Below are positions 1 through 14,676 of a stretch of 17,145 nt of DNA, one piece after another. The translations under genes and the position numbers were made by a program. The stretch is from a virus. Its lineage: Duplodnaviria; Heunggongvirae; Uroviricota; Caudoviricetes. The notes beneath the pieces were generated by a model, which made no database searches, had not been told where the DNA came from, and worked only from the letters and a program-made list of their open reading frames with translations. The stretch's first letter is position 1, and each line of letters begins with the position of its first letter. The DNA is taken from positions 1 through 17,145 of IMG/VR virus record IMGVR_UViG_2737471824_000005; one strand, written 5' to 3'.

Positions 1-573
1 ATGTTTTGCGAAGAAAAAGTAGCTCAAATGGCTGCATACCTACTTCTTAAGCGAGGTGGGCGCATGGCATATCTGAAATTGATGAAGCTGCTCTATCTGT
101 CTAACCGCAAGTCGATTTTGAAGCATGGCAGGATGATCGGCGAAGATAGCCTTTACTCTATGAAATTTGGTCCAGTCATGTCGAATACGCTGAACTTGAT
201 TCGTGGTAAGGCTGAAGGTATTGGTGACTACTGGTACAACCTGATAGAGACGAACGGGCATGATGTGTTGTTGCGTTCAGATCCGAGGGAAATGGATGCA
301 GACGAGGTCTTTGATGAGTTGAGCCGTGCAGATATCCGGATTTTAGATGAAATCTATTCTCTGTATGGGCATATGAACCGATTTGATCTCGCAAACATGA
401 CGCATTTAGAAAGCGTTTGTCCAGAGTGGCACAATCCTGGCAATTCTCGTAAGCCTATAGACCTGAAAGAAATGCTGATCAGTGAGGGTAAAAGCGAGGA
501 TGAGGCTAATCGTATAATTGGCAAAATGGAAGAATCTCAGAAACTTAAGGAATTTTCTTTGCAATTATCATGA
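1..573 (+). CDS. Panacea/DUF4065-like protein (SocA/PanA-type putative antitoxin); may be N-terminally cut by window edge
   Basis: ORF starts at base 1; N-terminal signature 'AAYLLLKRGGRMAYLKLMKLLYLSNRKS' resembles the conserved helix pattern of DUF4065/Panacea proteins; stop overlaps next start (ATGA at 570-573). Confidence 0.5.
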   Translation: MFCEEKVAQMAAYLLLKRGGRMAYLKLMKLLYLSNRKSILKHGRMIGEDSLYSMKFGPVMSNTLNLIRGKAEGIGDYWYNLIETNGHDVLLRSDPREMDADEVFDELSRADIRILDEIYSLYGHMNRFDLANMTHLESVCPEWHNPGNSRKPIDLKEMLISEGKSEDEANRIIGKMEESQKLKEFSLQLS

Positions 574-989
574 CGGATTATCAGCCATACAGGAAAGGAA
601 CTGTGCTTGCCCCAACTGGGCCATGCAATCATCTTCATGTGATTTGTAATGATCCTGTTTATTACCCCGTTAACGATTGTTATTGTGTTTTAGTTGTTAA
701 TATTTCTAGTATCAAGGATGGTGTCCCCCACGATCCGTCTTGCGTCTTGAATTCTGGTGATCATCGCTTTATCAAGCATCCAAGTTATGTTGTTTACGCT
801 GAAGCTATAATTTGGCGAGTGGATAACATGGTTAGAAAGCAGCGATCGGGTGAGATTTCCGTTCATGATGATATGCCAGAAGCTACATTCAATAGAATTC
901 TGGACGGTTTTGATATATCTGATGAAGTTACGCCAAAGAACCTTAAATTTAAAAATAAATATTGCGTATCATCTATTGATGATGAGTAA
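570..989 (+). CDS. hypothetical 139-aa protein, translationally coupled partner of the Panacea-like gene (candidate toxin)
   Basis: ATG at 570 overlaps upstream stop (ATGA); no domain recognised by eye. Confidence 0.4.
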   Translation: MTDYQPYRKGTVLAPTGPCNHLHVICNDPVYYPVNDCYCVLVVNISSIKDGVPHDPSCVLNSGDHRFIKHPSYVVYAEAIIWRVDNMVRKQRSGEISVHDDMPEATFNRILDGFDISDEVTPKNLKFKNKYCVSSIDDE

Positions 990-1028
990 ACAACAGGAAT
1001 TGTTTCGGTATAGCTTCTGGAGTTTTCT

Positions 1029-1202
1029 ATGGAAGATCAAAAAGCAACCAAGCCACAGGTTAAGTTCGACACAATGAAAGCATTCGCAGGTATGGGTGCT
1101 GCTGTTGAAGTTCTGATGAAGGCTGCTCCTAATGCGTTCACTCACGCTACTGTCTCTGGTAAAGAGCAGCAGGGTAAGCTTCGTCGTCGCAAAGCAGCAT
1201 GA
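1029..1202 (+). CDS. small hypothetical protein (57 aa) 'MEDQKATKPQVKFDTMKAFAGMGAAVEVLMKAAPNAFTHATVSGKEQQGKLRRRKAA'
   Basis: Below the ORF-track length cutoff; GGAG 6 nt upstream of ATG 1029; codon choice biased to GCT/GTT/CGT/GGT; followed by a strong hairpin plus T-run. Confidence 0.35.
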   Translation: MEDQKATKPQVKFDTMKAFAGMGAAVEVLMKAAPNAFTHATVSGKEQQGKLRRRKAA

Positions 1203-1221
1203 TCATAGCTGGTGCTTTTTG

Positions 1222-1250
1222 AAAACCCGCCTTTAGGCGGGTTTTTTCTT
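1222..1250. terminator. putative bidirectional rho-independent terminator between convergent genes
   Basis: AAAACCCGCC-ttta-GGCGGGTTTT hairpin (1223-1246) followed by T-run on + strand; lies directly after the PrtN-like stop on the - strand. Confidence 0.6.
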
Positions 1251-1531
1251 TAGTGATGTTCTTTGCCCTTCTGTTTGCCTGTTCTGACCTGTTCCCACTC
1301 GATACGTCCTTCTTCTCGTCTTTTGTCTATGTATTCCGCAAGATCCTGAATATTGATGCAACGTTTTGCTTTTTGTGATGCACCGATGCGATATGTAGGT
1401 ACAGGCAACTTACAAGCGTTTGCTTTTGCTTCTGCTGTGGCTGGACTCATACCAAAGTATTTTTGACTAACTGCTGAGAGTTCAATGTTTGGGGTATTGA
1501 ATTCAGCCATCAGTAAAAACAAGGTATTCAT
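1250..1531 (-). CDS. PrtN-like (pyocin-activator family) small DNA-binding phage regulator
   Basis: 93 aa; segment 'YFGMSPATAEAKANACKLPVPTYRIGASQKAKRCINIQDLAEYID' matches the PrtN/excisionase-like HTH family pattern as I recall it; GGAG 8 nt upstream of ATG. Confidence 0.55.
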   Translation of the reverse strand: MNTLFLLMAEFNTPNIELSAVSQKYFGMSPATAEAKANACKLPVPTYRIGASQKAKRCINIQDLAEYIDKRREEGRIEWEQVRTGKQKGKEHH

Positions 1532-1567
1532 ATCATTTCTCCATCATAACCGGCTGCACCCGGTGAG

Positions 1568-2383
1568 TTACTTATTCATTTCAATAATATTATTTTCTAT
1601 CATTGATTTATTTAAAACCAAAGAAGGAGCAAGATGGTTGTCTATTTTAAACAATGCATAACTTTTAAACTGTTGGTGATATCCGTAACTAATAAGGATG
1701 CTAGAAAAATCTCTTAATTCATCTTCTTTTAAAAAATTAAAATGAAATGGGTTGTCACCATTTATGAACAATGAAACATCTATTATGCAGTATTTCTCTC
1801 CGTTGTCATTTGCATAGAAAAAAATATAAGACATTCTGTTTGTTAAGACAATGCCATTAAATTTTCTTATGTCTGTAGCTATTTTGTTTTCCATGTTTGG
1901 TGCTACATATTTATTTTCAGAAATACATTTAATTTCATCTCCAGATGTCGTGATTATATAAAAATGAAACTTATCAGAAATATCTAACTTAACTACGCCA
2001 TCATTATTGTAAAGGCTGCTAAATTTTGGTGGTTCAACTTTTAAAGAATCATAGTTCTTTAAAAGAAGAGGGGAGTCAAATTTAATAACTTGTAGTATCC
2101 CTTTACCTTCAACCTCCATATTGATTGAAGATATAGCAATTGCATTATCTCTTTTATTATTCAGGATTATGGTTGATATATGCATGTCATATATTCTACT
2201 TGCATTTGCTGAATACGACACTGTCACCTTTTTTGATATTTTTTGCACGCCAAAATATATAGTGAAGGCAGCGGCAAGAATAGATAAGAATTTAATGTCA
2301 AATAAGGACCATAGCCACATTAGTTGCTCAATTGCTTCAGAGTTAATCATTTGCTTTACCATTATCGCTGTAATACAACACAT
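1568..2383 (-). CDS. AT-rich hypothetical protein with N-terminal transmembrane anchor (candidate moron)
   Basis: ORF open to 2401 but that codon is TTG; first ATG at 2383 (others at 2362, 2350); hydrophobic segment 'LMWLWSLFDIKFLSILAAAFTIYFGV'; visibly lower GC than flanking genes; no recognisable domain. Confidence 0.5.
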   Translation of the reverse strand: MCCITAIMVKQMINSEAIEQLMWLWSLFDIKFLSILAAAFTIYFGVQKISKKVTVSYSANASRIYDMHISTIILNNKRDNAIAISSINMEVEGKGILQVIKFDSPLLLKNYDSLKVEPPKFSSLYNNDGVVKLDISDKFHFYIITTSGDEIKCISENKYVAPNMENKIATDIRKFNGIVLTNRMSYIFFYANDNGEKYCIIDVSLFINGDNPFHFNFLKEDELRDFSSILISYGYHQQFKSYALFKIDNHLAPSLVLNKSMIENNIIEMNK

Positions 2384-2504
2384 GTGTGTATATATACGCA
2401 ATGCAATTATTTTGCAAGTGCTTCATTTACTATCAATAGCTACGTCACGTTATTGTTTAATGGTTCTTTATAGGGGCGGCAATAGTTAAAATTATCGCTT
2501 CCGT

Positions 2505-2526
2505 AAATGCCCCCGCAGGGGCATTT
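2505..2526 (-). terminator. hairpin downstream of the DUF2303-like gene (possible terminator or RNA stability element)
   Basis: AAATGCCCC-cgca-GGGGCATTT 9-bp stem; no clean U-run on either strand. Confidence 0.3.
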
Positions 2527-2538
2527 GCAGTAATGAAA

Positions 2539-3363
2539 TCAGGCGGTGAAAGTACCAATAAAGGTTTCTACTTTGCTGTCTTTGAATTTCTCAACAAGCA
2601 GATCACGAAATTCGTTAGCCATTTCTTCCTGTACCGCTTCCAGCTGAATAATGCGCAGAACCAGTACAGGACGATCGCCAGTGATAATGCTGAGGCGTAA
2701 TTTAAACGGACGTTCTTTCAGACCTTCAAACGGAACGCATTTAAATTCAAATGCCACTGGCATAATGTCTTTGGTCTTCGCTTCGACAGACTCCATCAGG
2801 GAGCGTTTGCCGCTGAAGTCATTATCTTCAAAATCAGCGGTCTGGTTCGCTTCAATTGTGATTTTACGGATCGCCGCAGCCGCTTTGGTTGCCTGAATGG
2901 CGTCACCATTAGCATCAAAGCCCACAAGGTAGTCGGCCCAGTCTTCAATCCATTCTGCCAGTGACTTCTGGGAGTTACGCTCGCCATTAACAGACAACAG
3001 AGCAGAGAACGGAGCTGTCTTTTTCAGTTTGAGAGTGGCGGTGTTATCTGCGTGACCTGGTTCATCAATAGTACCCAGGTTAAGAACACTGACGGCACGC
3101 ATATTATCAGCATCGATAAAGCAGCGGGTGCCTTCATCTGCAAGATCTTTAGAATAACGAGTAAAGTCATCGATGCTGGCAGTGGAAAGCGCACCACGGA
3201 AACGGAAACGATTTAAATTTAATTTTTCCAGATCATGAATGCGGAAATTCTCAGGCAATGCCACAGCATCGGCACCAATCTTACTGATAATTTCATTAAC
3301 ACCCTGAGCAGAAATAAGGGCATGGATTTGATTAATTGCGGTTGCGTCTAAGTTCTGAGACAT
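2539..3363 (-). CDS. YfdQ-like prophage protein (DUF2303 family), 274 aa
   Basis: ATG at 3363 with GAGGA upstream; length and position downstream of a 120-aa gene match the yfdP-yfdQ pair of enterobacterial prophages; assignment from memory of family length and context, not an alignment. Confidence 0.55.
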
Positions 3364-3428
3364 AATAAGTCCTCACTATATAAAGATATTCAGTGATGAG
3401 ATAAATAATCGGTTAATTAAGAACGATA

Positions 3429-3791
3429 TTAATGACCTGCTGCGCGGAGTTTTCCGTCAGGTTCACCGGCAAGAGTCAGTAATTGTCCCTGGTCTTCCTG
3501 CAGAATAGTCAGGCGACCACCGCGATTGACATACATCGGCGTTTCGGTGGTGTCTTCTTCGGAAATTTTCCCGCGGTTAGTCGGGCGAACATATGAGAGT
3601 TTGTGTTTGATTTTCACACGGTTCTCATCAAATGGTTCGATTTCCAGGTTGAGTGAGACCTTACCTTTGGTTTTCGTATTCATCACACCGGAAGCGACTT
3701 CACTGAGAACTGCGCCGATTTTGGTTTCAAATACGCCGCCGTCCAGCTCCCCAATAAATGCCTGCACATCAGTACTGCGTTCGCTAGCCAT
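3429..3791 (-). CDS. YfdP-like prophage protein, 120 aa
   Basis: Track ORF extends to 3977, but ATG at 3791 is preceded by AGGAG 8 nt upstream; product 'MASERSTDVQAFIGELDGG...' is 120 aa. Confidence 0.5.
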   Translation of the reverse strand: MASERSTDVQAFIGELDGGVFETKIGAVLSEVASGVMNTKTKGKVSLNLEIEPFDENRVKIKHKLSYVRPTNRGKISEEDTTETPMYVNRGGRLTILQEDQGQLLTLAGEPDGKLRAAGH

Positions 3792-4406
3792 TTTGCTGCT
3801 CCTAATCATATCGACCCTGCAAGGTCGGTTGGTTTCTCCACAAAACAGAGAAGAACACCTGCGGTGGCAGCCGCCCGGATGGATTTGGTTATGAGCCCGT
3901 CGTCCGGTGATGCTCTTCTCTGTTTTGTAAAAAGAGCGGTACCAGCCGGAAGCAAGTGTACAAACTGGTACCGCCAAAGCAGTGGCTGTTGTGGTGACCG
4001 GTGCTGATCTCCGGCTTGCGGTTATTTCAGACTCTCACGGGCGTTTAATTGCCCCGCCGAACAGCTCTTTTCCGCATTAGCTGCAATGTCTTTCGCGCAT
4101 CAGCCTGCGCATTCACCACAACGCTGAGAGCACTTAGCCAGTTACGGCACCACACTTTGTCGCGGTTCCATAAATGTCCTCATCGTTGCACCCTGGTCTC
4201 TTCCCAGGCGTCAAACCGAATCGCCACGCTGGTTAGGCGTCTTATCAGCATCATCATTGACTTGCACATTCCGGCTACCTGGTTTGTTTGCCCGAGCAAG
4301 GAGTGGATTGTCCCCTTTAACGTCCCCAGACCGCTAACGACGCATGTGCCATACGCCGTGTTACAACCAAATTTTGTTTAATCTTGCCTGTGCTGTGTTT
4401 CTTTTA

Positions 4407-4439
4407 GATACATTATGTATCCCAAAGGTACATTGTCAA
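4407..4439 (-). promoter_or_regulatory. putative leftward sigma70 promoter (pL-like) overlapped by a perfect 15-bp palindrome operator
   Basis: On - strand: TTGACA (4434-4439), 16-nt spacer, CATAAT (4412-4417); palindrome GATACATtATGTATC at 4407-4421. Confidence 0.45.
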
Positions 4440-4442
4440 GTA

Positions 4443-4466
4443 TAAAAAAACCTGCCGAAGCAGGTT
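4443..4466 (-). terminator. rho-independent terminator after the repressor gene
   Basis: AACCTGC-cgaa-GCAGGTT hairpin followed on the - strand by a run of 7 U; sits 12 nt past the cI stop. Confidence 0.6.
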
Positions 4467-4477
4467 ATAAATATTGA

Positions 4478-5152
4478 TTAGGCCTTTATTATGTATCTTC
4501 TTGGTTTTCCTGAGAAAATCACTGTACCAATTATAGAGCAATTACCGTTAATCTTAATGTAAGGCTCAGGCCAGTTTGGGTTTAATGCTTTGAGATAACG
4601 CTGTGTTCCATCTTCTATCAACCGCTTGAAGGTGGTTTCGCCTGTATCGTGCATCAATGCAATAACGTCGTCACCGTGGCAGGCAGGGACTTCAGGATCA
4701 ACAAAAATCATGTCTCCCGGGCGGTACTCATCAATCATTGAATCACCAATCACCCGCAAGATATAAGTCATTTCGCCACAGGGTACAGGGCAGGGATAAG
4801 TTTCTGCTGTGCTCAAATCAACCTCAGAATAGCCAACTTCTTTCCATGCTCCGGCCTGTACCCATGATATGACAGGGACTAACGTTATTTGTTTGTTAGT
4901 GATTGAAACGTCAGGTTTTTTTGTGATGTTCGTTGTCTGGTGTTCTTGATCAAGCCATCCGACAGGCAGGTCGAAACATTTTTCGATGTGCCGTGCCATG
5001 CTGTCACCGATATTTTTAGTTGCACCATCTCCCATAAACCTGCTGGTCTGGGTTGGCTCGCGATCAATCATGGTGGCAAAGGAAGAATTCCCGCCAACAC
5101 CATCTCTCAGTTTTCTGGCGTTAGACCGCCGGATGTCATGGACTGTTTTCAT
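4478..5152 (-). CDS. cI: CI-type prophage repressor (N-terminal HTH, C-terminal S24 LexA-like autopeptidase)
   Basis: 224 aa; S24 motifs 'VIGDSM' (Ser) and 'FKRL' (Lys); divergent to a Cro-like gene; start 18 nt from an operator palindrome. Confidence 0.8.
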   Translation of the reverse strand: MKTVHDIRRSNARKLRDGVGGNSSFATMIDREPTQTSRFMGDGATKNIGDSMARHIEKCFDLPVGWLDQEHQTTNITKKPDVSITNKQITLVPVISWVQAGAWKEVGYSEVDLSTAETYPCPVPCGEMTYILRVIGDSMIDEYRPGDMIFVDPEVPACHGDDVIALMHDTGETTFKRLIEDGTQRYLKALNPNWPEPYIKINGNCSIIGTVIFSGKPRRYIIKA

Positions 5153-5169
5153 AAAGAAATTAAAACCTT

Positions 5170-5186
5170 TGTACCGATAAGGTACA
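5170..5186. promoter_or_regulatory. 17-bp operator palindrome in the divergent cI/cro control region
   Basis: TGTACC-gataa-GGTACA, perfect 6-5-6 inverted repeat; a second imperfect copy is centred near 5229 overlapping the cro Shine-Dalgarno. Confidence 0.55.
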
Positions 5187-5242
5187 AGTATCTTGAAGGT
5201 TCATCTCAATCATGTAATATGTATACCGGAGGTACATATTGT

Positions 5243-5443
5243 ATGAAAGCGTATTGGGACTCTTTAACCAAAGAACAGCAGGGTGAGTTGGCCGGAAAAG
5301 TTGGCTCAACACCAGGCTACTTACGGCTGGTTTTCAATGGTTATAAAAAAGCCAGTTTTGTGCTGGCTAAAAAACTTGAGCAATGCACGTCAGGTGCAAT
5401 TACGAAATCTGACTTAAGACCGGATATCTATCCGAAAGATTAA
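5243..5443 (+). CDS. cro: Cro-like small HTH regulator (66 aa)
   Basis: Real start is the internal ATG 5243 with GGAGG 10 nt upstream; product 'MKAYWDSLTKEQQGELAGKVGSTPGYLRLVFNGYKKASF...'; divergent to cI. Confidence 0.6.
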   Translation: MKAYWDSLTKEQQGELAGKVGSTPGYLRLVFNGYKKASFVLAKKLEQCTSGAITKSDLRPDIYPKD

Positions 5444-5474
5444 CAGAACACCTTCAATTTTTAACCACAGAACG

Positions 5475-6038
5475 ATGAGGCTAACCGTGGGTAAGCATCA
5501 CTGGAAAGTAGAAAAACAGCCTGAGTGGTACGTGAAAGCTGTCAGAAAAACTATCGCGGCGTTGCCGGGGGGTTACGCTGAAGCTGCTGAGTGGCTGGAT
5601 GTAACAGAGAACGCTTTATTCAACCGCCTTCGTGCAGATGGCGATCAGATTTTCCCGCTGGGATGGGCAATGATTTTACAGCGCGCGGCTGGCACTCACT
5701 ACATTGCGGATGCTGTCGCACAGTCTGCTGGTGGGGTGTTTGTATCGCTTCCTGAAATTGAGGAAGTAGAGAACGCCGATATAAACCAGCGCCTGCTGGA
5801 AGTCATCGAACAGATCGGGAGTTACTCAAAGCAGATTCGTTCGGCAATCGAAGATGGGGTAGTGGAGCCACACGAGCAGACAGCAATTAATGATGAGTTG
5901 TATCTGTCAATTTCGAAGCTCCAGGAGCATGCAGCACTGGTCTACAAAATCTTTTGCGCTCCAGAAAAGAGTGACGCCCGCGAGTGTGCAGCTCCGGGCG
6001 TCGTGGCGTTTTGTGTCTGTGGAGAAACTAACGCATGA
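5475..6038 (+). CDS. CII-like / phage regulatory protein (family uncertain)
   Basis: Positioned immediately after cro; alternative GTG start at 5487 has GAGG upstream; stop overlaps next start (ATGA). Confidence 0.4.
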   Translation: MRLTVGKHHWKVEKQPEWYVKAVRKTIAALPGGYAEAAEWLDVTENALFNRLRADGDQIFPLGWAMILQRAAGTHYIADAVAQSAGGVFVSLPEIEEVENADINQRLLEVIEQIGSYSKQIRSAIEDGVVEPHEQTAINDELYLSISKLQEHAALVYKIFCAPEKSDARECAAPGVVAFCVCGETNA

Positions 6039-6871
6039 ACAGTTTAACGGCAAATAACCGTTTGTCGCAACAGCTGGTGGTCAGCGTCGCTGAACACCTG
6101 TTGTTACGGCATGAATGCAGATTACCAAATCACCTGGCTGTAAGTAACCACAGAGAACTTTACCTGACTGTGGGGGGCGAGTTGTGCAGGAACTTAACCG
6201 CTGGTTTCGTGACGGAAGAGGACTTTATGTTCATGTTATTCGTTAGGAGCCAGAAACACAGCGCGTTATCTATCTTCGCAAAGACTACCCGCATGAGTGC
6301 TTTAGTCCTTTGTGGAAATTCAGGCGTGATTTTGTTGAGTGTGAAGGACCACCAGCACATTGATTCTGCCATTCCGGGACGTTACACTGTTCAGGCACCT
6401 TATAAAGCGGGTGCCGGGATTGGCGTCCTGGAATTGATCAAGGCGATATATGACGCGCCAGCGTCTTTTTTATCGTCCGCATTTGCTCACATCAAAGTTA
6501 TGGTGGGCTGGGCGGGGGCATCGAAAGATGCGCCGGTTTCCTTGATCACCGGTTACGCCAACCCCGTTCAGTTCACCACCAGCGAAATTGGCGTTTCCGG
6601 TGGTGGAAGTATTTCACCGATCAAGGAGGCTGCCATCATGGCTACTGTCCCAGCCCTCACTCGTCTGAATGATGAAGACTTACATAAACTCAGTTATGTA
6701 ACAACTGCACTACGTGCTCTGCGCAAGGTAACTCTTTCGGATCCGCAGGCACATCAGGTTCTGGTAGAAACCCTTCTTAACTTGCAAGCTGAACGTATTC
6801 GTCTGGCGGATAAGGCTAATTTTCATATTCACCGTCTCCTGAATATCAGCGGAGGGCATCGTCATGCTTAA
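6035..6871 (+). CDS. hypothetical 278-aa protein; C-terminal part may derive from a tape-measure gene
   Basis: GGAG 9 nt upstream of ATG; coupled to flanking ORFs; segment 'LLNLQAERIRLADKAN' resembles my recollection of an internal lambda H segment (unverified). Confidence 0.4.
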   Translation: MNSLTANNRLSQQLVVSVAEHLLLRHECRLPNHLAVSNHRELYLTVGGELCRNLTAGFVTEEDFMFMLFVRSQKHSALSIFAKTTRMSALVLCGNSGVILLSVKDHQHIDSAIPGRYTVQAPYKAGAGIGVLELIKAIYDAPASFLSSAFAHIKVMVGWAGASKDAPVSLITGYANPVQFTTSEIGVSGGGSISPIKEAAIMATVPALTRLNDEDLHKLSYVTTALRALRKVTLSDPQAHQVLVETLLNLQAERIRLADKANFHIHRLLNISGGHRHA

Positions 6872-7100
6872 TCCGTTGATCCTCAATATTTGCCGTTTGC
6901 TTCAGCGTAAAAAAATATCAATTCCTACAGTTGGGCAGTGGTACACCACGCCTGCAGGGCATGTTCTACGTGTTAGCCTGGTTGACCGTGAATGCCAGAA
7001 GGTGATTTGTGAACCGCTGGGCCGTAATTACCGCGTCAGTATGCCGCTTATAGCCTTTCGCTCCGGAAAAAACATGAAGCATCTCGGAGGTGCAGCATGA
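6864..7100 (+). CDS. hypothetical 78-aa protein (possible tape-measure-derived fragment)
   Basis: GGAGGG 6 nt upstream of ATG; overlaps neighbours by 8 and 4 nt. Confidence 0.3.
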   Translation: MLNPLILNICRLLQRKKISIPTVGQWYTTPAGHVLRVSLVDRECQKVICEPLGRNYRVSMPLIAFRSGKNMKHLGGAA

Positions 7101-7327
7101 GTATGGAGCTGATGGTTAAAGCGATGAAAATTCGAGTGGGTATTGGTGGTTCAGGTATGGCGATGTTTGCCCCGCAGTACAACATCGAGATCAATAACGA
7201 TGGCACGAACGGGCAGATAGGTCCGGCTGCCCTGAAGGTGGTTTATGACCTTGGGAAAAAAGCGGCAGCGGACTTTATGCAACAGCAGGCCCGTGATGGT
7301 GGTCGGTTAAGTGGAGCATATCGGTAA
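7028..7327 (+). pseudogene. H: 3' remnant of tail tape measure gene H
   Basis: Frame opens after a stop at 7025-7027; 'INNDGTNGQIGPAALKVVYD...DGGRLSGAYR' matches the lambda H C-terminus as I recall it; an internal ATG at 7097 has a GGAGG SD; stop overlaps the M start (TAATG). Confidence 0.6.
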
Positions 7328-7656
7328 TGGAGACGTTTCACTGGAAAGTGCGCCCGGATATGAATGTGGTATCAGAGCCGAAAGTGGTGACAGTGAAGCT
7401 GGGCGATGGTTATGAACAGCGTCGTGCGGCGGGACTGAATAACCAGTTGTCGATTTACAGCGTGACGATACGTGTTCGTAAATGTGAACACCCATCTTTA
7501 AAAGCCTTTCTGGAACGGCACGGTGGCGTCCGCGCATTTCAGTGGACGCCACCTTATGACTGGAAGCCGATCAGGGTGGTTTGTCGTAAATGGTCGGCAA
7601 GCGTGGGGGCGCTGTGGGTAACCATAACGGCAGATTTTGAACAGGTCGTGGCATAG
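7327..7656 (+). CDS. M: minor tail protein M
   Basis: 109 aa, same length and clear similarity to lambda gpM (e.g. 'GDGYEQR', 'HGGVRAFQWTPPYDWKPIRVVCRKWSA'); conserved lambda gene order. Confidence 0.9.
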   Translation: METFHWKVRPDMNVVSEPKVVTVKLGDGYEQRRAAGLNNQLSIYSVTIRVRKCEHPSLKAFLERHGGVRAFQWTPPYDWKPIRVVCRKWSASVGALWVTITADFEQVVA

Positions 7657-7665
7657 GAGGCTCTG

Positions 7666-8364
7666 ATGCAGGATATTCCACAGGAAACACATCATGAGAC
7701 GACACGCCTCACTCAGTCAGCCCAGGTGGTGCTCTGGGAAATCGATCTGACAGTGGTCGGTGGAGAACGTTATTTTTTCTGTAATGAGCAGAACGAAAAA
7801 GGTGAGCCGGTCACCTGGCAGGGGCGACAGTATCAGGCGTATCCCATTCAGGGGACGGGATTTGAACTGAACGGCAAGGGCAGTGCTGCCCGTCCGACAC
7901 TGACGGTTTCTAACCTGCACGGCATGGTCACCGGGATGGCGGAAGACCTGCAGAGTCTGGTCGGAGGAACGGTGGTCCGGCGTAAGGTTTACGCCCGCTT
8001 TCTGGATGCGGTGAACTTCGTCAACGGAAACAGCGAAGCCGATCCGGAGCAGGAGGTGATCAGCCGCTGGCGCATCGAGCAGTGCAGCGAACTGAGCGCG
8101 GTGAGTGCCTCTTTTGTACTGTCCACGCCGACGGAAACGGACGGTGCCGTTTTTCCGGGACGTATCATGCTGGCCAACACCTGCACCTGGACCTATCGCG
8201 GTGATGAGTGCGGTTATCACGGTCCGGCGGTCGCGGATGAATATGATCAGCCGACGTCCGATATCACGAAGGATAAATGCAGCAAATGCCTGAGTGGCTG
8301 TAAGTTTCGCAATAATGTCGGCAACTTTGGCAGCTTCCTTTCCATTAACAAACTTTCGCAGTAA
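7666..8364 (+). CDS. L: minor tail protein L
   Basis: 232 aa; near-identical over long stretches to lambda gpL as recalled; AGGAGG SD. Confidence 0.9.
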   Translation: MQDIPQETHHETTRLTQSAQVVLWEIDLTVVGGERYFFCNEQNEKGEPVTWQGRQYQAYPIQGTGFELNGKGSAARPTLTVSNLHGMVTGMAEDLQSLVGGTVVRRKVYARFLDAVNFVNGNSEADPEQEVISRWRIEQCSELSAVSASFVLSTPTETDGAVFPGRIMLANTCTWTYRGDECGYHGPAVADEYDQPTSDITKDKCSKCLSGCKFRNNVGNFGSFLSINKLSQ

Positions 8365-8369
8365 ATCCC

Positions 8370-9113
8370 ATGACACAGACAGAATCAGCGATTCTGGCGC
8401 ACGCCCGGCGATGTGCGCCAGCGGAGTCGTGCGGCTTCGTGGTGAGAACGCCGGAGGGGGAAAGATATTTTCCCTGCGTGAATATCTCCGGTGAGCCGGA
8501 GGATTATTTCCGGATGGCTCCGGAGGACTGGCTGCAGACAGAAATGCAGGGTGAGATTGTGGCGCTGGTCCACAGCCACCCCGGTGGTCTGCCCTGGCTG
8601 AGTGAGGCCGACCGGCGGCTGCAGGTGCAGAGTGATTTGCCGTGGTGGCTGGTTTGCCGGGGGGCGATTCACAAGTTCCGCTGTGTGCCACATCTTTCCG
8701 GGCGGCGCTTTGAGCACGGGGTGACGGACTGTTACACGCTGTTCCGGGATGCTTACCATCTGGCGGGGATTGAGATGCCGGATTTTCATCGCGAGGATGA
8801 CTGGTGGCGTAACGGTCAGAATCTCTATCTGGATAATCTGGAGGCCACAGGGCTGTATCAGGTGCCGTTGTCAGCGGCGCAGCCGGGCGATGTGCTGCTG
8901 TGCTGTTTTGGTTCATCGGTGCCGAATCATGCCGCCATTTACTGTGGTGACAGCGAGCTGCTGCACCATATTCCTGAACAACTGAGCAAACGAGAGAGGT
9001 ACACCGACAAATGGCAGCGACGCACACACTCCCTCTGGCGTCACCGGGCATGGCACGCATCTGCCTTTACGGGGATTTACAACGATTTGGCCGCCGCATC
9101 GACCTTCGAGTGA
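8370..9113 (+). CDS. K: tail assembly protein K (JAB/MPN + NlpC/P60 domains)
   Basis: 247-aa ORF; JAMM motif 'HSHPGGLPWLSEAD'; Cys/His of NlpC/P60 ('DCYTLF', 'HAAIY'); the classically annotated 199-aa lambda K would start at internal ATG 8514. Confidence 0.85.
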   Translation: MTQTESAILAHARRCAPAESCGFVVRTPEGERYFPCVNISGEPEDYFRMAPEDWLQTEMQGEIVALVHSHPGGLPWLSEADRRLQVQSDLPWWLVCRGAIHKFRCVPHLSGRRFEHGVTDCYTLFRDAYHLAGIEMPDFHREDDWWRNGQNLYLDNLEATGLYQVPLSAAQPGDVLLCCFGSSVPNHAAIYCGDSELLHHIPEQLSKRERYTDKWQRRTHSLWRHRAWHASAFTGIYNDLAAASTFE

Positions 9114-9658
9114 AAACGGGGTCCGAAGCCATCCGGGCGCTGGCCATGCAGAACCCGGCGTTTCGTCAGAAACTGAGCGACGGCTGGTACCAGGTACGCA
9201 TTGCCGGGCGTGATGCAGGTGAAACCGAATTGTCTGCCCGTCTTAATGAGCCGCTGGCAAATGGTGCCGTGATCCACATCGTGCCGCGTCTGGCGGGAGC
9301 TAAAAGTGGAGGTGTGTTTCAGGTGGTGCTGGGGGCGGCGCTGATTGCGGTGGCATGGTGGAACCCTGTGGGCTGGCTGGGTGCCGCGGCTGTATCGGGC
9401 ATGTATGCGGCAGGGGCCAGTATGATCCTGGGCGGAGTGGCGCAGATGCTGGCACCGAAAGCCAGGACGCCCACGGCAGCAAGTACAGATAACGGCAAAC
9501 AGAACACCTATTTCTCCTCACTGGATAACATGGTTGCCCAGGGCAATGTTCTGCCGGTTCTGTACGGTGAAATGCGCGTGGGGTCTCGCGTGGTTTCTCA
9601 GGAGATCAGCACGGCAGACGAAGGGGACGGTGGTCAGGTTGTGGTGATTGGTCGCTGA
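9011..9658 (+). CDS. I: tail assembly protein I
   Basis: 215 aa, strong similarity to lambda gpI at both termini; overlaps K by 103 nt, which I recall is also true in lambda. Confidence 0.85.
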   Translation: MAATHTLPLASPGMARICLYGDLQRFGRRIDLRVKTGSEAIRALAMQNPAFRQKLSDGWYQVRIAGRDAGETELSARLNEPLANGAVIHIVPRLAGAKSGGVFQVVLGAALIAVAWWNPVGWLGAAAVSGMYAAGASMILGGVAQMLAPKARTPTAASTDNGKQNTYFSSLDNMVAQGNVLPVLYGEMRVGSRVVSQEISTADEGDGGQVVVIGR

Positions 9659-9676
9659 TGCAAAATGTTTTATGTG

Positions 9677-9696
9677 AAACCGCCTGCGGGCGGTTT
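9677..9696 (+). other. hairpin between I and J (possible attenuator)
   Basis: AAACCGCC-tgcg-GGCGGTTT 8-bp stem followed by TGTCATTT. Confidence 0.3.
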
Positions 9697-9718
9697 TGTC
9701 ATTTATGGAGCGTGAGGA

Positions 9719-10705
9719 ATGGGTAAAGGCAGCAGTAAGGGGCATACCCCGCGCGAAGCGAAGGACAACCTGAAGTCCACGCAGCTGCTGAGTGTGATCG
9801 ATGCCATCAGCGAAGGGCCGGTTGAAGGTCCGGTGGATGGATTAAAAAGCGTGCTGCTGAACAGTACGCCGGTGCTGGACAGTGATGGGAATACCAACAT
9901 CGCCGGTGTCACGGTGGTGTTCCGGGCCGGTGAGCAGGAGCAGACTCCGCCGGAGGGATTTGAATCCTCCGGCTCCGAGACGGTGTTGGGTACGGAAGTG
10001 AAATACGACACGCCGATCACCCGCGCCATCACGTCGGCAAACATCGACCGACTGCGCTTTACCTTCGGCGTGCAGGCACTGGTGGAAACCACCTCAAAGG
10101 GTGACAGGAATCCGTCGGAAGTCCGTCTGCTGGTTCAGATACAACGTAACGGTGGCTGGGTGACGGAAAAAGACATCACCATTAAGGGCAAAACCACCTC
10201 GCAGTATCTGGCCTCGGTGGTGGTGGGTAGCCTGCCGCCGCGCCCGTTTAATATCCGGATGCGCAGGATGACGCCGGACAGCACCACAGACCAGCTGCAG
10301 AACAAAACGCTCTGGTCGTCATACACCGAAATCATCGATGTGAAACAGTGCTACCCGAACACGGCACTGGTCGGCGTGCAGGTGGACTCGGAGCAGTTCG
10401 GCAGCCAGCAGGTGAGCCGTAATTATCATCTTCGCGGGCGCATTCTGCAGGTGCCGTCGAACTATAACCCGCAGACGCGGCAATACAGCGGTATCTGGGA
10501 CGGAACGTTTAAGCCGGCATACAGCAACAACCCGGCCTGGTGTCTGTGGGATATGCTGACCCACAGCAACACGTCTCTGGCGTGGGGAGCTGGCGTGCAG
10601 TTTAACCCGACCGAATCCGTGGCCATTGATATTGCTTATGAAGGCTCCGGCAGTGGCGACTGGCGCACTGACGGTTTCATCGTGGGTGTCGGTTATAAGT
10701 TCTGA
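9719..10705 (+). CDS. J: truncated tip attachment protein J (first ~283 aa) fused in-frame to the last ~45 codons of lom
   Basis: N-terminus matches lambda gpJ ('MGKGSSKGHTPREAKDNLKSTQLLSVIDAISEGP...') up to '...WCLWDMLTH'; then continues as Lom-like C-terminus 'AWGAGVQFNPTESVAIDIAYEGSGSGDWRTDGFIVGVGYKF'. Confidence 0.8.
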   Translation: MGKGSSKGHTPREAKDNLKSTQLLSVIDAISEGPVEGPVDGLKSVLLNSTPVLDSDGNTNIAGVTVVFRAGEQEQTPPEGFESSGSETVLGTEVKYDTPITRAITSANIDRLRFTFGVQALVETTSKGDRNPSEVRLLVQIQRNGGWVTEKDITIKGKTTSQYLASVVVGSLPPRPFNIRMRRMTPDSTTDQLQNKTLWSSYTEIIDVKQCYPNTALVGVQVDSEQFGSQQVSRNYHLRGRILQVPSNYNPQTRQYSGIWDGTFKPAYSNNPAWCLWDMLTHSNTSLAWGAGVQFNPTESVAIDIAYEGSGSGDWRTDGFIVGVGYKF

Positions 10706-10731
10706 TTAGCCAGGTAACACAGTGTTATGAC

Positions 10732-10759
10732 AGCCCGCCTGTTCAGGCGGGCTTTTTTG
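10732..10759 (+). terminator. rho-independent terminator after the J-lom fusion
   Basis: AGCCCGCCTG / CAGGCGGGCT stem followed by TTTTTT. Confidence 0.7.
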
Positions 10760-10769
10760 TGGGGTGAAT

Positions 10770-13700
10770 ATGGCAGTAAAGATTTCAGGTGTACTGAAAG
10801 ACGGCACAGGAAAACCGGTACAGAACTGCACAATCCAGCTGAAAGCAAAACGTAACAGCACCGCGGTGGTGGTGAACACGCTGGCCTCAGAAAATCCGGA
10901 TGAAGCCGGGCGTTACAGCATGGACGTTGAGTACGGTCAGTACAGCGTTATTCTGTTGGTGGAAGGCTTCCCGCCATCGCATGCCGGGACCATCACCGTG
11001 TATGAAGACTCACAACCGGGTACGCTGAATGATTTTCTCGGTGCCATGACGGAGGATGATGCCCGTCCGGAGGCACTGCGCCGTTTTGAGCTGATGGTGG
11101 AAGAAGTGGCGCGTAACGCGTCCGCGGTGGCACAGAACACGGCAGAGGCTGCTATTTCTGCCTCTCAGGCCGAAGAGTTCGCGAGCAATGCTTCTGAATA
11201 TGCGCTGAATAAGTTCACGTTCTATAAAACGCCGAGCGATCCGGACGGTACAATTGCAGGCCTTGCTGCTACTACCAGCGGGCAGTCTTTCCGTGTAGCG
11301 GAAGGCCCGGGAGCAACAGCGGCATTCAAAACCTACGAGAACCAGGATGGCGTGGCTATACTACAGGCTTCTCAGCCAGGCACAGCTGCTATAACAGGGA
11401 CAATCCGCGAATTTCCCACGCTGGAGGCGGCACAGGCTGATGCAGACGCTGGCAATATTCTTTCTGGTTCAAAATGCTGGGTAACCAGTGCTATAAATAC
11501 CTCGCTGGCTGACGAGTATGTAAATACATCCGGGGTTATGACTGCAACCGGGAGAACAATTATTTCCCAGTACAGCCTATCTTCGTCTATATCAAGAGAA
11601 GCAACCAGAAGAAAAAATGGTGATTATCAGGATTTGATTGAATTCAAATCTCTTGATGATACAGCACTACCATTACCGGAAAATTCAGTATTAGAATTTT
11701 TGTCTCTGGCAACCACTACGGATGTAAACACAAACTTCTATCGCCTTGTTTTTTCTTCGCTGGGTTCTGAGGTTGCGTCACTGGTTTTTCCTGGGACGAA
11801 CACCCAGTATTCTGATGGTAAATTCTGGTCAGCGTATCGCCTGTTCCGATTTCAGGATTTGAAGTATGTTTCCATTCTGGAAACGACCAGTAGTGTAGTT
11901 CGGGTTCGCTATGACCTGCCGGCTGGGTTTGGTGTTCCGGTAGCAGGCTCAAACTATATTGCACTTGATATTACAGGCAAGTTTTATCCGGCGCAGGCAG
12001 GCTCAGTTAACTCCGTCACAAGGAAGTCAATATCCGGGACAGCAATTGCCAACGCCATTCAGTTCGTGGTTACCATCGCTGAACTTACGGCTGCTGGTTA
12101 TACGGCGTCGACCGTTGTTGATTACATCAACTCAATAGCGCCAGATTGCCTCTTTGCGGCATATGCGGCATATGATACGACGATTGCCCAGACAGGGTTT
12201 GAAGATTTTTTCAGGATTCAGTTACCTGCTGGTGATTATACCGTTAGCCGTGATGGCTTTGCGCCTTCAGGACTGGCAGTGTTACCTGCCGGTGCGTATT
12301 CGGTATGGCGTAAAAAGCCTGTAAGGCAGGTATTTGTTGGAAACTTCCTGAGAAATGTTGCTGATGTTAAAAATCTGCTGTCGGCAGAATATAAAAACTA
12401 TCCCGTTGAGCTTAAGGTGTCGTTTGGTCCCGGCGAAGTGCCAGACTCCGATGCGCTGAAGGTGATGGACGCTGACGGCAACGTGTTTGACTGCCAGTTT
12501 GCGGATAACGTTTATCCCAATCCACGCCTGAAATCGAACACCGGATACCATGCCGACGGCTCCCTGGCATCAGGGTCTGTGTTCATCACCGATACCCTGG
12601 CATCAGGACAGCAGAAATATTACGAACTCAGGGCATACAATCGTCGCCGCCAGGACCTGGCCTCAGAGTCCTTCCCGCAGCTCGTGAGGGTGGCTGACGG
12701 GTTCACCGTTACCGTGGGCGGGTATGTGTATTTTTTCCAGCGCCAGAACAGCCTGGGGCTGACCAGTATCACCGACCCGGCAGGACAGACGCACAGTTTT
12801 GCGCATTCCTGTTACTGTACCGGGATTGTCTCCGGCGGATCCTCAAGTAACCAGATGGTGCTCGGTGCATCACTGCGCATGGTTAATACCGGGCCGGTCT
12901 TTACTGAGCTGGAGCTGACCGTCAGAAACCGGACCATCGGAACACTGGCTGAAGGGGCGTTACAGTCCACAGTACGCTACCGGATTTTCAAAAATGGCAA
13001 GGTGCTTATCCGGGTCATGACCACGGCTACGCAAGATATTCCGGCTGGAGTATTATTTGGTGCATATTCCCGTCTGAACCTGAATGATGGTGCATATACC
13101 TTTGATGCCGCTAGAGCACTGACGTACTGGACGGATTCAGTCACCGGCAAGCGATTTACGGCCACGACGGTCTTTGCTAATGGGGATATCCACCGAGATG
13201 GCCCTGCTTATGGGCCAACGCGCCCGATACGGGCAACGGCGCTGCAACCCACAGGCACAACAACTCGGCTGGACGCGGGATGGCTTTTCGTTGACCTGAA
13301 TGACGATTCATTCCTGAACTGGCCTGTGCCAAAAAACTGGACGTGGACACATGAGACATGGATTGACTGCGACAACACCATCACCAGTTCCACCTCAGAG
13401 GTTAATGCACTGCTGGTAAGTCAGGCTAACAACCGCCCGGTAGGGTTCATGGGTGATTGCAGTTATGCAGGTGTTCTGCGGCTGGACATGCTGGAGAAAA
13501 TCGCCTGTCACGTCAGGGGATCCGTTGAGTGGTGGAAAAGCACTGACGCTACTGTTTATGGTGGCGGACCCGATGTGAAAACGCAGTTCTATTGCCACAT
13601 GGCAGAGATTTTTCTGTTAGAAAAGTATGGCATCAGCACGCTGAACACAGTGTATACGAATTTTAAATCGTACATGAGGGGATTTGGCGGCATAACTAAT

Positions 13701-14504
13701 CCAGGTATTATGTTCACTGATGGATGGTGGGGGTTGCAGTTCCAGTCGCGTCTGAGTATTCCGTGCTATGAGTGGCTCTACAAAATGGCGGTGAAGGCCG
13801 GAGATACAGCCAAACAAACCGAGCTGAAGGCGGGGATTAAATCCCTCGCGGATGCCGTCATGGTGTCATATAACACCTATGGTGGCGTGGCTCTGGTGGG
13901 GACAGCCACAAACTCAGGAAACAGCAACTCTAACGCGACAGCCATGCGCGTGCTGGCGCTGGCGATTTATATGGGGCTGGATACCGGCGGGACGTACCTT
14001 GCTGCATTCAATGCGCTGGAGACCTTCATCACGAACTCAGCGACATTCATGAAAGCGGAAAACATTATTCTCGATGGCCCGTCGGATTCCACGCTGAAGA
14101 GCATGTACCTGCCGTACATGGTTTACGCCACTAATAACTACCTGCTGGCCTGCAAGCTGCTTAACCGGACACCAAAGTTTGACCTGGTGAATTTTATCCT
14201 GACAGCGTCAAACAGCGCGGGAGGATTCAGTGAGGTGGATTACTGCATCTCTGAAAGCCGACGTGGTGGCGCGAACACCATCGCGTTTGCGTTACTGCCG
14301 CTGTTTCAGTCCGCCAGGCCGTCAGCAATGATTGCCGCAAAATCGCTGTTCGGAATTTTTGAGACGCAGTACGGGCCGAAACCGGGACTACCAAAGCGCT
14401 TCTTTGATTTTGACGGCAGCAGTGCGGCTGGCAGCACGATGTATGACCCGTGCTTTGTGGCGTCAACGCTTGCCGACCTTTGGCTGTCATATGGCTACAA
14501 TTAA
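10770..14504 (+). CDS. stf: side tail fibre protein, chimeric: lambda Stf-like N-terminal ~150 aa plus ~1,100-aa non-Stf distal region
   Basis: ATG at 10770 (track starts at GTG 10764); N-terminus matches lambda/Rac Stf; the Ala/Ser-rich shaft and Gly/His-rich distal repeats of lambda Stf are absent. Confidence 0.8.
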
Positions 14505-14662
14505 TGGAAAATAGAAATCAGGATGCTGCAGATCTGGAAATCGCAACGGAGGAAGAAACCTCGTTGCTGGAAGCCTGGAAAAAGTATCGGGTGTTGCTGA
14601 ACCGTGTTGATACATCAACTGCACCTGATATTGAGTGGCCTGCGGTCCCTGTTATGGAGTAA
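14504..14662 (+). CDS. tfa: tail fibre assembly protein remnant (C-terminal 52 codons of tfa)
   Basis: '[47 protein letters not shown]' matches the conserved Tfa C-terminus; ATG shares a base with the stf stop (TAATG). Confidence 0.6.
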
Positions 14663-14676
14663 TCGTTTTGTGATAT

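Follow-up and report, generated by a model that had tools for sequence, protein, structure and literature searches.

The cryptic prophage e14 of E. coli K-12 (ymfK-ymfT-ymfL-ymfM-ymfN) carries a 224-aa S24 repressor, a cro-like gene and the CII-like ymfL, followed by a YmfM-like segment with a nested DUF4222 ORF and by ymfN, a "chimeric replication protein/phage terminase" (oweE'-'aaaE) that joins the 5' part of a replication gene to a late gene. Phages SfV (orf36-39) and Ayreon (genes 0040-0043) carry the counterparts of the YmfL gene, 278-aa ORF, 78-aa ORF and replication gene treated here. The dusA prophage of E. coli A14 (NZ_CP028760.1, about 336.4-380.4 kb) has all modules and carries no pseudogene flags. 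The mechanism of the P1 C4 RNA was reportedly described by Citron and Schuster in 1990 and by Biere et al. in 1992. In loci of the type of P1/P7 immI (c4 antisense RNA - icd - ant) and Gifsy-1 isrK-orf45-anrP, a C4-family RNA lies between the sites a1/b1 and a2/b2, b2 is located on the ribosome-binding site of the next ORF, and an IsrK-like sRNA with a terminator stands in front. The isrK-orf45-anrP organisation and a processed species of ~80 nt have been described (PMC4825925).

The DNA analysed here (17,145 bp, hereafter the window) comes from a single E. coli strain (GCA_000798255.1), where it forms a defective lambdoid prophage integrated at dusA. Its positions 1-7142 are 99.93% identical to the A14 prophage (5 SNPs), and 7138-10563, 10561-11145 and 14518-17145 are collinear with A14 after gaps of 22,410 and 3,181 bp. 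Identity is 99.9% over 1-7142 and 14518-17145, and the gene order and integration site are shared. Unlike the window, A14, SfV and Ayreon keep the 22.4-kb and 3.2-kb segments and a DUF4222 gene without a premature stop; A14 and Ayreon also have other side-tail-fibre C-termini, and Ayreon differs in the C4 specificity word. With e14 the window shares the type of early region and the kind of scar, but e14 has another type of replication gene, its right breakpoint is in the terminase rather than the tape-measure gene, its ymfM runs, by gene layout, directly into the replication-gene remnant with no isrK/C4 block, and it is integrated at icd, not dusA. The RNA arrangement of P1/P7 and Gifsy-1 is likewise shared, but the regulated ORF of the window appears to be one of 77 aa, not icd/ant or AnrP; an orf45-like frame is fused to it in frame, and orf38 and, originally, the replication gene come after it.

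The locus is very probably the outcome of a single internal deletion of 22.4 kb and an independent J-lom deletion, with the native early operon of the phage lying upstream of position 7097. The scar is a case of ordinary prophage decay.

The 22.4-kb deletion and the replication-tape-measure fusion

The major junction was located by a three-way alignment of the window with its left and right parents; the BLAST segments on either side overlap at 7138-7142. It is spanned by a 76-aa ORF (7097-7327), an in-frame chimera Rep(1-15)::TMP(961-1021), with the following parts.

7097-7141, plus strand: replication-initiator codons 1-15 with the native Shine-Dalgarno sequence and start, showing 100% identity to the first 15 residues of the 272-aa replication proteins of A14 and Ayreon
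7141-7142: deletion junction 1, a 2-bp TA overlap
7142-7327, plus strand: in-frame 3' end of the tape-measure gene (its last 61 codons and the stop), with 100% identity to the A14 and Ayreon proteins at residues 961-1021

The parent replication protein matched phrog_270 (replication initiation, E=2e-88), and the left end of the deletion lies 45 nt inside its gene, a homologue of SfV orf39. Tape-measure similarity was evident in 7097-7327: the 76-aa ORF was 60% identical to lambda H residues 801-853 (E=9e-16) and matched H 800-851 in PDB entry 8IYK (E=2e-14). In 8IYK and other entries, gpH residues 800-851 align to chimera residues 23-74, while the modelled 32-residue tape-measure chain of tail entry 9E7M aligns to residues 41-71. 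Unlike gpH, the chimera is without TMP_2, TMP_4 and Tape_meas_lam_C (residues 228-885 of the A14 protein), and Pfam contained no family for the 76-aa ORF. Such a tape-measure fragment cannot measure or build a tail.

Compared with A14, 22,410 bp are missing from the window, a stretch that begins in the replication genes and takes in most of the tape-measure gene. Ayreon, a complete-genome deposit, has both junction flanks, with ~21.4 kb between them in prophage order. One illegitimate-recombination event very probably removed the ~22.4 kb, from codon 16 of the replication initiator to codon 960 of the 1021-codon tape-measure gene, and with it replication, the nin-like region, the Q antiterminator, lysis, terminase, portal, capsid, tail tube and chaperones. 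The junction is clean and in frame, and contains no IS element. According to our own calculation, an overlap of 2 bp is expected by chance in ~16% of random joins, and it therefore tells little of the mechanism. The chimeric ORF retains the ribosome-binding site of the replication gene, and its 3' end is still coupled to M. Because the late promoter and Q have been lost, the cI-repressed early promoter would be the sole remaining source of transcripts of the chimera and M-L-K-I-J', and this transcription would be gated by the C4 RNA as well.

A preliminary description of this DNA had proposed that a large deletion, accompanied by loss of the replication, lysis and head modules, connected the immunity region at about 6035 to the 3' part of H. 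The comparison with A14 confirms that these modules are absent and maps the endpoints of the missing segment. A large deletion did bring the 3' end of H next to early genes, but its left end is at 7141-7142 and not in the immunity region. The 76-aa ORF had been taken for the H C-terminus; this holds for codons 16-76 but not for codons 1-15, which are the replication-initiator start. Where several H-derived fragments had been suspected, this one fusion ORF was found.

The early operon upstream of the junction

ORF calls and homology agree with the gene order given earlier: cI, cro, the CII-like gene and the 278-, 78- and 76-aa ORFs are followed by M, L, K and I. The genes upstream of the fusion are as follows.

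4478-5152, minus strand: cI-like LexA/S24 repressor, YmfK homologue, full length (Pfam Peptidase_S24, E=1.5e-26)
5243-5443, plus strand: cro-like HTH gene, YmfT homologue (Pfam YdaS_toxin/HTH_3, under the gathering score)
5487-6038, plus strand: CII-like gene, YmfL homologue (Pfam Phage_CP76, E=8.5e-15; phrog_101 CII-like activator, E=1e-72)
6035-6871, plus strand: 278-aa ORF, SfV orf37 homologue, a composite of a 5' leader, a nested DUF4222 gene, an RNA module and a 3' 77-aa ORF
6864-7100, plus strand: 78-aa ORF, SfV orf38 homologue, intact (100% identical to A14 and 98.7% to Ayreon over 78/78 aa; phrog_1153, E=5e-42)

The repressor is 99% identical to that of Ayreon over 224/224 aa and is called ymfK in the A14 annotation; the cro-like gene is 100% identical to its Ayreon counterpart and is annotated as cro in SfV. 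The three ORFs that follow the CII-like gene are indeed coupled and provided with good Shine-Dalgarno motifs, as had been noticed: GGAG (6021-6024) precedes the ATG at 6035, which overlaps the ymfL stop (ATGA); GGAGGG (6851-6856) precedes the ATG at 6864; and GGAGGT (7086-7091) precedes the ATG at 7097, again with an ATGA overlap.

Over 5200-7142, identity was 99.1% to SfV, 96.5% to Ayreon and 99.9% to A14. SfV, Ayreon and the apparently intact A14 prophage have orf37 and orf38 in collinear arrangement with the 278- and 78-aa ORFs. Both genes occur in working phages; they were found in SfV, Ayreon, 2H10 and Stx2c phages. From this collinearity with SfV, Ayreon and A14, we conclude that the two ORFs are genes unrelated to H, namely orf37 and orf38, which the preliminary description had offered as its alternative. 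Its first suggestion, resemblance of both ORFs to internal H sequence, was not sustained by the six-frame comparison that it had proposed. The six frames of 6035-7096 were compared with lambda H and with the Ayreon tape-measure protein in six frames, using tblastn, a tblastx-equivalent from six-frame translations, small word sizes, and blastn with word size 7. The best E-value, obtained in one of 12 queries, was 0.014. At default settings, the best score was 20.8 bits versus 21.6 +/- 1.9 for triplet shuffles, the observed score being reached by 40 of 60 shuffles; the positive control, 7097-7327, scored 131 bits. Thus, no tape-measure similarity was seen in any frame of 6035-7096. For the 78-aa ORF, no Pfam family was found even at E<=1, nor was a relationship to RgdR detectable.

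Judged by its sequence, the early operon of the phage family is preserved unchanged upstream of 7097, except for one nonsense mutation. The operon comprises cro, the CII-like gene, a stopped DUF4222 gene, an IsrK/C4 RNA module, the 77-aa ORF and orf38.

Composition of the 278-aa ORF

ORFs of the 278-aa type are annotated as Ash-family regulators or immunity genes in SfV-type phages, and their 5' part is homologous to e14 YmfM. In the window, this ORF contains the following elements.

6184-6363, plus strand: DUF4222 (RgdR-family) small gene in another frame, inactivated by TGG>TAG at 6244-6246
6395-6471, plus strand: IsrK-like sRNA, full length (Rfam RF01394, 64.2 bits versus a gathering score of 50)
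6496-6583, plus strand: C4-type antisense RNA (Rfam RF01695, 82.3 bits versus a gathering score of 45, model positions 1-87 of 87)
6588-6629, plus strand: target sites a2 (6588-6594) and b2 (6619-6626), the latter overlapping the Shine-Dalgarno sequence AAGGAGG at 6623-6629
6638-6871, plus strand: 77-aa ORF downstream of the C4 target, with a strong Shine-Dalgarno sequence 8 nt upstream

The A14 copy of the DUF4222 gene matched Pfam DUF4222 (PF13973, E=9.5e-14) and could be aligned to RgdR (ECs1581, E=2e-9); substitutions between lineages sit on third codon positions of the DUF4222 frame. The TAG stop, at codon 21, is present in the window copy only, and this copy, whose frame is not intact, is therefore a pseudogene. 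The window contains the sequence G GGG GGC upstream of the DUF4222 frame. A -1 ribosomal frameshift from YmfM/orf37 into the DUF4222 frame was considered and dropped, as e14 is without a slippery site at the equivalent place. In e14 the frame has its own start, AAGGAG-N7-TTG, and in the Stx1 phage it starts with ATG; internal initiation is therefore preferred over frameshifting.

The Ash family (Pfam PF10554) matched residues 117-210 of the 278-aa ORF with 68 bits, versus a gathering score of 26. The matched segment coincides with the IsrK/C4 RNAs. Substitutions in 6364-6637 are evenly distributed over codon positions (e.g. 29/30/34 and 31/36/36), and a coding pattern was not found in the Ash-matched segment. 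At the ATG of the 77-aa ORF (6638), a Rha/Ant antirepressor starts in mEp460, ST64B and Stx1 phages.

The IsrK-like sRNA contains a1 (6420-6426) and b1 (6436-6443), and its 3' end is an intrinsic terminator consisting of a hairpin and U-run (6452-6471; terminator-like site 6452-6465). A weak mir-3116 match at 6372-6433, far under the gathering score, was set aside. In the C4 RNA, compensatory changes were observed in 8 of 28 pairs (5 lineages). Complementary sites for its b' loop (6540-6548) and its a' element (6555-6561) occur on both sides, a1/b1 upstream and a2/b2 downstream, and the loops and target sites covary three-way in five lineages. Cognate Watson-Crick runs were 5-10 nt for b' (8-10 nt, except for ST64B b1 with 5) and 6-7 nt for a', versus 3-6 nt for non-cognate pairs, one run of 6 exceeding that of ST64B b1. 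The C4 RNA would mask the ribosome-binding site of the 77-aa ORF.

It may be, though we consider it unlikely, that the 278-aa ORF is largely no protein gene in its own frame, its conserved products being the nested DUF4222 small protein and the IsrK/C4 RNAs. In that case, the nested DUF4222 ORF, and not the annotated YmfM frame, could be responsible for the SOS-inducible division block of e14 (sfiC, assigned to ymfM), and the nonsense mutation in the window would be the loss of a division-block effector in a grounded prophage. The composition of this ORF bears on the true nature of the e14 division inhibitor YmfM.

The second deletion, the state of the element and alternative explanations

To the right of the fusion lies a tail-tip block that ends in a second scar.

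7327-9658, plus strand: tail-tip genes M, L, K and I, full length (94-100% identical over full length to A14 or Ayreon homologues)
9719-10705, plus strand: J'::'lom in-frame fusion, J 1-282 plus Lom 153-199 (Pfam FNIII-A_GpJ plus Ail_Lom positions 152-199 of 199)
10732-10753, plus strand: strong intrinsic terminator after lom (9-bp stem with 7 G-C pairs, then a T-run)

The individual genes are M (7327-7656; Pfam Phage_min_tail), L (7666-8364), K (8370-9113) and I (9011-9658). At deletion junction 2, with a 4-bp overlap of CCAC at 10561-10564, J is joined to lom in frame; relative to A14, 3,181 bp are missing here. The J-lom deletion is a second event, independent of the 22.4-kb deletion. Reading downstream from the early promoter region, no strong terminator-like site occurs before the one at 10732-10753.

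Host genes of the yjbJ/zur/yjbM type precede the prophage on its contig, and its left flank and that of the A14 prophage at dusA are identical. The missing segment is found between the same flanks in this collinear relative with all modules, and the genes at the breakpoints are truncated compared with full-length homologues, the retained parts being 15 of 272 aa for Rep, 61 of 1021 for the tape-measure protein, 282 of 1165 for J and 47 of 199 for Lom. Replication, lysis, packaging, head and tail-tube genes are absent from the window; lacking them, the element would be unable to replicate, lyse the host or form particles. It may persist as a carrier of immunity and defence, with cI, the Panacea gene and a reverse transcriptase plus SLATT. 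In PADLOC, there was no match for the Panacea gene, its 139-aa neighbour or a 277-aa AT-rich ORF; a PDB sequence search with the C-terminal 1101 aa of the side-tail fibre gave no match, and a tRNA scan of the whole window found none. A satellite or PICI was rejected as an explanation: the genes form a strict subset of those of one prophage, and primase, replication, packaging and capsid-size genes are lacking.

The tail-tip block is 97-98% identical to A14 versus 99.9% in the flanks, and the direct parent was therefore not A14-like throughout; the exact parent of the element was not found. The drop raises the question of recombination between two resident prophages, one of SfV/A14 type at dusA and another with a lambda-type tail. 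Identity to A14 falls from 99.9% to 97.7% exactly at the junction, and it is Ayreon that is matched instead, at 99.8%, over the first 560 bp on the right side of the joint. However, order and orientation are those of a single prophage, both modules exist in one genome (Ayreon, mEp460, cdtI), and the right end (reverse transcriptase, SLATT, DinI) is back at 99.85% identity to A14, so that a second exchange would be needed. We regard such recombination between prophages as improbable and attribute the identity drop at the tail genes to earlier homologous exchange, i.e. tail-gene mosaicism, in a prophage that then suffered the single internal deletion.

Neither deletion disrupts the reading frame, M, L, K and I are complete, and no strong terminator-like site occurs from the early promoter region to 10732. 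The arrangement might accordingly have been selected, the in-frame fusions maintaining uninterrupted translation and thereby expression of tail-tip or downstream genes from the early promoter to the benefit of the host, or the block being a reservoir for recombination with incoming lambdoid phages. We think this very improbable: two in-frame joins have a chance of 1/9, the element is private to one strain, J is without 883 of 1165 residues, so no tail tip can form, and only 5 SNPs versus A14 in 7.1 kb leave almost no time for selection.

The junction-spanning exact 34-mer had no match in the one-genome-per-species GTDB collection, none of 5,426 complete E. coli genomes spanned the junction, and the exact fusion protein was on one NCBI contig only, as would be the case for a chimeric contig. 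An assembly artefact is nevertheless hardly credible, since a separate Logan assembly of SRR2239613 (the same strain) is 100% identical to the NCBI contig across the junction, the clean, in-frame joint lies away from repeats, and a similar second deletion is located 3.4 kb away. That the immunity region was joined directly to H, and that the 278-, 78- and 76-aa ORFs are all scrambled H fragments, can be dismissed with near certainty: the 76-aa ORF alone matches H, 6035-7096 scored at shuffle level, and in SfV, Ayreon and A14 the collinear orf37/orf38 are followed by a complete replication gene.

The internal deletion thus leaves one more lambdoid prophage grounded by loss of replication, lysis and morphogenesis, with its immunity and defence cargo kept. 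The scar closely parallels the ymfN chimera of e14 and matters little in itself. It does bear on annotation: two proteins recorded as "hypothetical", KHI12376.1 (76 aa) and KHI12381.1 (328 aa), are chimeras, Rep'::'TMP and J'::'Lom respectively, and the 278-aa ORF, which phage records label "immunity region" or "transcriptional regulator", is for the most part occupied by a small gene in another frame together with two structured regulatory RNAs.

Deletions in the dusA prophage

The window was found at 100% identity in E. coli GCA_000798255.1 (contig JUCS01000097.1), and host genes of the yjbJ/zur/yjbM type that adjoin the prophage place it at the dusA integration site. The same site in E. coli A14 (NZ_CP028760.1) carries an apparently intact prophage without pseudogene flags.

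Gene order of the A14 prophage
Left part: Panacea gene ... cI, cro, ymfL, DUF4222, 'ash', orf38, replication protein (272 aa)
Middle: yfdN, dam, rusA, Q, lysis, terminase, portal, capsid, tail, tape-measure protein (1021 aa)
Right part: M, L, K, I, J (1165 aa), lom, stfR, tfa
End: reverse transcriptase, SLATT, dinI, int, dusA

Window positions 1-7142 match A14 with 99.93% identity (5 SNPs); the match ends there, and positions 7138-10563 pick up 22,410 bp further along A14, at 97.7% identity. Both flanks are present in Ayreon, a deposited complete phage genome, with ca. 21.4 kb between them when the genome is read in prophage order. A base-level three-way alignment revealed identity to the left parent through A7142 and unbroken identity to the right parent from T7141, which places the crossover at the dinucleotide TA. 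The sequences at the crossover, GGGTA versus GGATA, match at four of five positions, and an overlap of at least 2 bp is expected in ca. 16% of random joins by our own calculation. We conclude that the deletion arose by illegitimate recombination, rather than by a homologous, site-specific or IS-mediated event; the overlap tells no more than this.

The 76-aa ORF created at the junction (7097-7327) begins as the replication gene does, with the same Shine-Dalgarno sequence (GGAGGT, 7086-7091) and ATG, and keeps the initial 15 codons of that gene (MSMELMVKAMKIRVG); the 61 codons at the 3' end of the tape-measure gene follow in frame. The parent of the 5' part encodes a replication initiator, with matches to phrog_270 (E=2e-88) and to Pfam HTH_36 and DnaD_N. 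Over residues 16-76 the chimera matches residues 961-1021 of the tape-measure proteins of A14 and Ayreon at 100% identity; the three Pfam domains of the tape-measure protein are all encoded upstream of the retained part and fall within the deletion. As the preliminary description had noticed, this ORF matches the C-terminus of the lambda tape-measure protein H (residues 801-853, 60% identity, E=9e-16); H 800-851 is the matching segment in the lambda tail-tip structures of the PDB, and a 32-residue tape-measure chain in 9E7M aligns with chimera residues 41-71.

The two preceding ORFs, of 278 aa (6035-6871) and 78 aa (6864-7100), had likewise been taken to resemble internal H sequence. When six frames of lambda H and of the Ayreon tape-measure protein were compared with six frames of 6035-7096, the best similarity, from one of 12 queries, had E=0.014 and involved an antisense H frame at 21% identity. 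With default settings, the best score for 6035-7096 was 20.8 bits versus 21.6 +/- 1.9 in triplet shuffles (40 of 60 shuffles reached 20.8), while the positive control, 7097-7327, scored 131 bits. With scores at shuffle level, the proposed resemblance is rejected, and the alternative offered, that these ORFs are unrelated genes, is correct: they are collinear with SfV orf37 and orf38, downstream of which a complete replication gene is found in SfV, Ayreon, 2H10, Stx2c phages and A14. The earlier observation is thus partly confirmed and its interpretation partly supported, in that a large deletion does reach the 3' part of H (22,410 bp relative to A14), but its left end lies in the replication gene, at 7141-7142.

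A second deletion, independent of the first, removed 3,181 bp; its junction at 10561-10564 has a 4-bp overlap, CCAC. Past this additional gap, positions 10561-11145 match A14 again (96.8% identity), and positions 14518-17145 return to 99.85% identity. The product is the following fusion.

9719-10705: J'::'lom, J residues 1-282 joined in frame to Lom 153-199

Both deletions are in frame, for which the chance is 1/9; this may be coincidence or selection against polarity. Downstream of the early genes, a single strong terminator-like site was seen, at 10732-10753 past the fusion. The window retains full-length versions of the repressor, cro-like and CII-like genes, the RNA module, orf38, M, L, K and I. 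It has lost the late promoter region, Q, the replication and lysis genes, and every head and tail-tube gene.

The first junction was identical in a separate Logan assembly (run SRR2239613). No copy of it turned up among 5,426 complete E. coli genomes or, with an exact 34-mer (0 hits), in a one-genome-per-species collection; the exact chimeric proteins, KHI12376.1 and KHI12381.1, come from one NCBI contig each. We therefore conclude that the scar is no artefact, and that it is confined to one strain or lineage. It also arose recently, as divergence from A14 is just 0.07%. The scar is ordinary prophage decay: formation of a cryptic prophage by internal deletion is a well-known kind of event, and this case is new yet unremarkable.

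Contents of the 278-aa ORF

The 278-aa ORF holds three layers: a nested DUF4222 gene, two structured RNAs and a 77-aa ORF.

6184-6363, different frame from the 278-aa ORF: DUF4222 gene, 59 aa (A14 copy, Pfam E=9.5e-14; PGAP annotation in A14)
6395-6471, + strand: IsrK RNA (Rfam 64.2 bits versus gathering score 50, full length)
6496-6583, + strand: C4 antisense RNA (Rfam 82.3 bits versus gathering score 45, full length)
6638 (ATG) to 6871: 77-aa ORF

Substitutions between lineages concentrate on third codon positions of the DUF4222 frame (3/3/14 by codon position for A14 versus ST64B, 8/6/29 for A14 versus a Stx1 phage), while the orf37 frame is conserved no better than the third frame in this region (0.47 in both cases). 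The orf37 frame stays open (prior of ca. 0.04 per lineage, from E. coli codon usage), through either translation or chance. This conserved gene has a nonsense change in the window alone: TGG to TAG at codon 21 (6244-6246). It accounts for one of the five SNPs that separate the window from A14 over 7.1 kb, and comparison with SfV, Ayreon and mEp460 shows it to be the derived state. The DUF4222 family takes in RgdR, an O157 prophage regulator of type III secretion (PMC10877973); pairwise comparison of RgdR with the DUF4222 protein gave E=2e-9.

The 3' end of IsrK is a hairpin with a U-run, already flagged by a terminator scan. The C4 fold is kept in five lineages, with compensatory changes at 8 of 28 pairs. 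Its second hairpin loop carries a lineage-specific word of 8-10 nt, CCUUGAUCA in the window (6540-6548), complementary to sites b1 (6436-6443, inside IsrK) and b2 (6619-6626). Site b2 overlaps the Shine-Dalgarno sequence AAGGAGG of ATG 6638, which pairing is predicted to mask. Pairing runs of the loop element b' were 8-10 nt with cognate and 3-6 nt with non-cognate targets, except for ST64B b1 (5 nt by strict Watson-Crick pairing, 9 nt with one G-U pair). A second element, a' (6555-6561), pairs lineage-specifically with a1 (6420-6426) and a2 (6588-6594), and the loop and the a1/b1, a'/b' and a2/b2 sites co-vary across five phage lineages. The architecture is that of the P1/P7 immI region. Ayreon and the window are almost identical around the module, yet their C4 words differ (GCAUACGG and GAUCAAGG, respectively), which recalls heteroimmunity of the P1/P7 type. 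The isrK-orf45-anrP locus of Gifsy-1 (PMC4825925) also shares this organisation.

Substitutions in 6364-6637 show no preference for any codon position (e.g., 29/30/34), which means that constraint on this segment acts on the RNA and not on a protein. Since a Pfam Phage_ASH match (residues 117-210; 6383-6664) coincides with the module and codon-position bias is absent, the 'Ash domain' signal may be RNA conservation instead of a protein domain. In mEp460, ST64B and Stx1 phages, the Rha/Ant antirepressor begins at the ATG equivalent to 6638.

The chimera and tail-tip remnants would have the cI-repressed early promoter as their sole source of transcription, and the C4 RNA would gate their translation through coupled starts at 6638, 6864 and 7097. 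Such an element is probably unable to replicate, lyse or assemble, and may persist as a vehicle for immunity and defence cargo.

A parallel in e14

The nearest named parallel is the cryptic K-12 prophage e14, where an early region of the same type is followed by ymfN, annotated as a 'chimeric replication protein/phage terminase'. A nested DUF4222 ORF is also present in ymfM of e14 (4502-4681 of our e14 sequence, L014); it has a TTG start with AAGGAG 7 nt 5' of it, and ends 20 nt beyond the ymfM stop. K-12 and phage 720R4 differ at four positions in the overlap; none of these changes alters the DUF4222 protein, and each of them changes an amino acid in the ymfM frame. The sfiC function was assigned to ymfM with the ORF cloned in pBAD24 (bioRxiv 10.1101/2020.11.19.390815), and a text search of that preprint turned up neither a frameshift nor a stop-codon control. 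The nested ORF raises the question of which product gives the sfiC filamentation phenotype; that the DUF4222 product, and not the ymfM frame, is responsible is a testable alternative, not a conclusion.

Ends of the window

At the left end, a SocA/Panacea-domain gene (1-573) shares 4 nt with a 139-aa ORF without a family match; the pair (within 1-989) could be a toxin-antitoxin system. A 277-aa ORF at 1568-2401(-), in a 31-36% GC island, is 'hypothetical' in the A14 annotation; neither Pfam nor PADLOC gave a match, and the ORF has the look of a moron or accessory gene.

On the right, only the first ca. 145 aa of the side tail fibre (10764-14504) are shared with A14 and Ayreon; the other ca. 1100 aa are similar to tail proteins of Klebsiella phages (30-38% identity), with no PDB sequence match found. 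Downstream, the C-terminal ca. 45 aa of a tail-fibre assembly protein are left (14450-14662). A reverse transcriptase of defence class UG17 (14775-16151(-); PADLOC E=1e-158) overlaps the gene for a SLATT 2TM effector (16123-16674(-); E=3.5e-56), and a DinI-like gene (16897-17145(-)) adjoins the pair, which is also present in the apparently intact A14 prophage.
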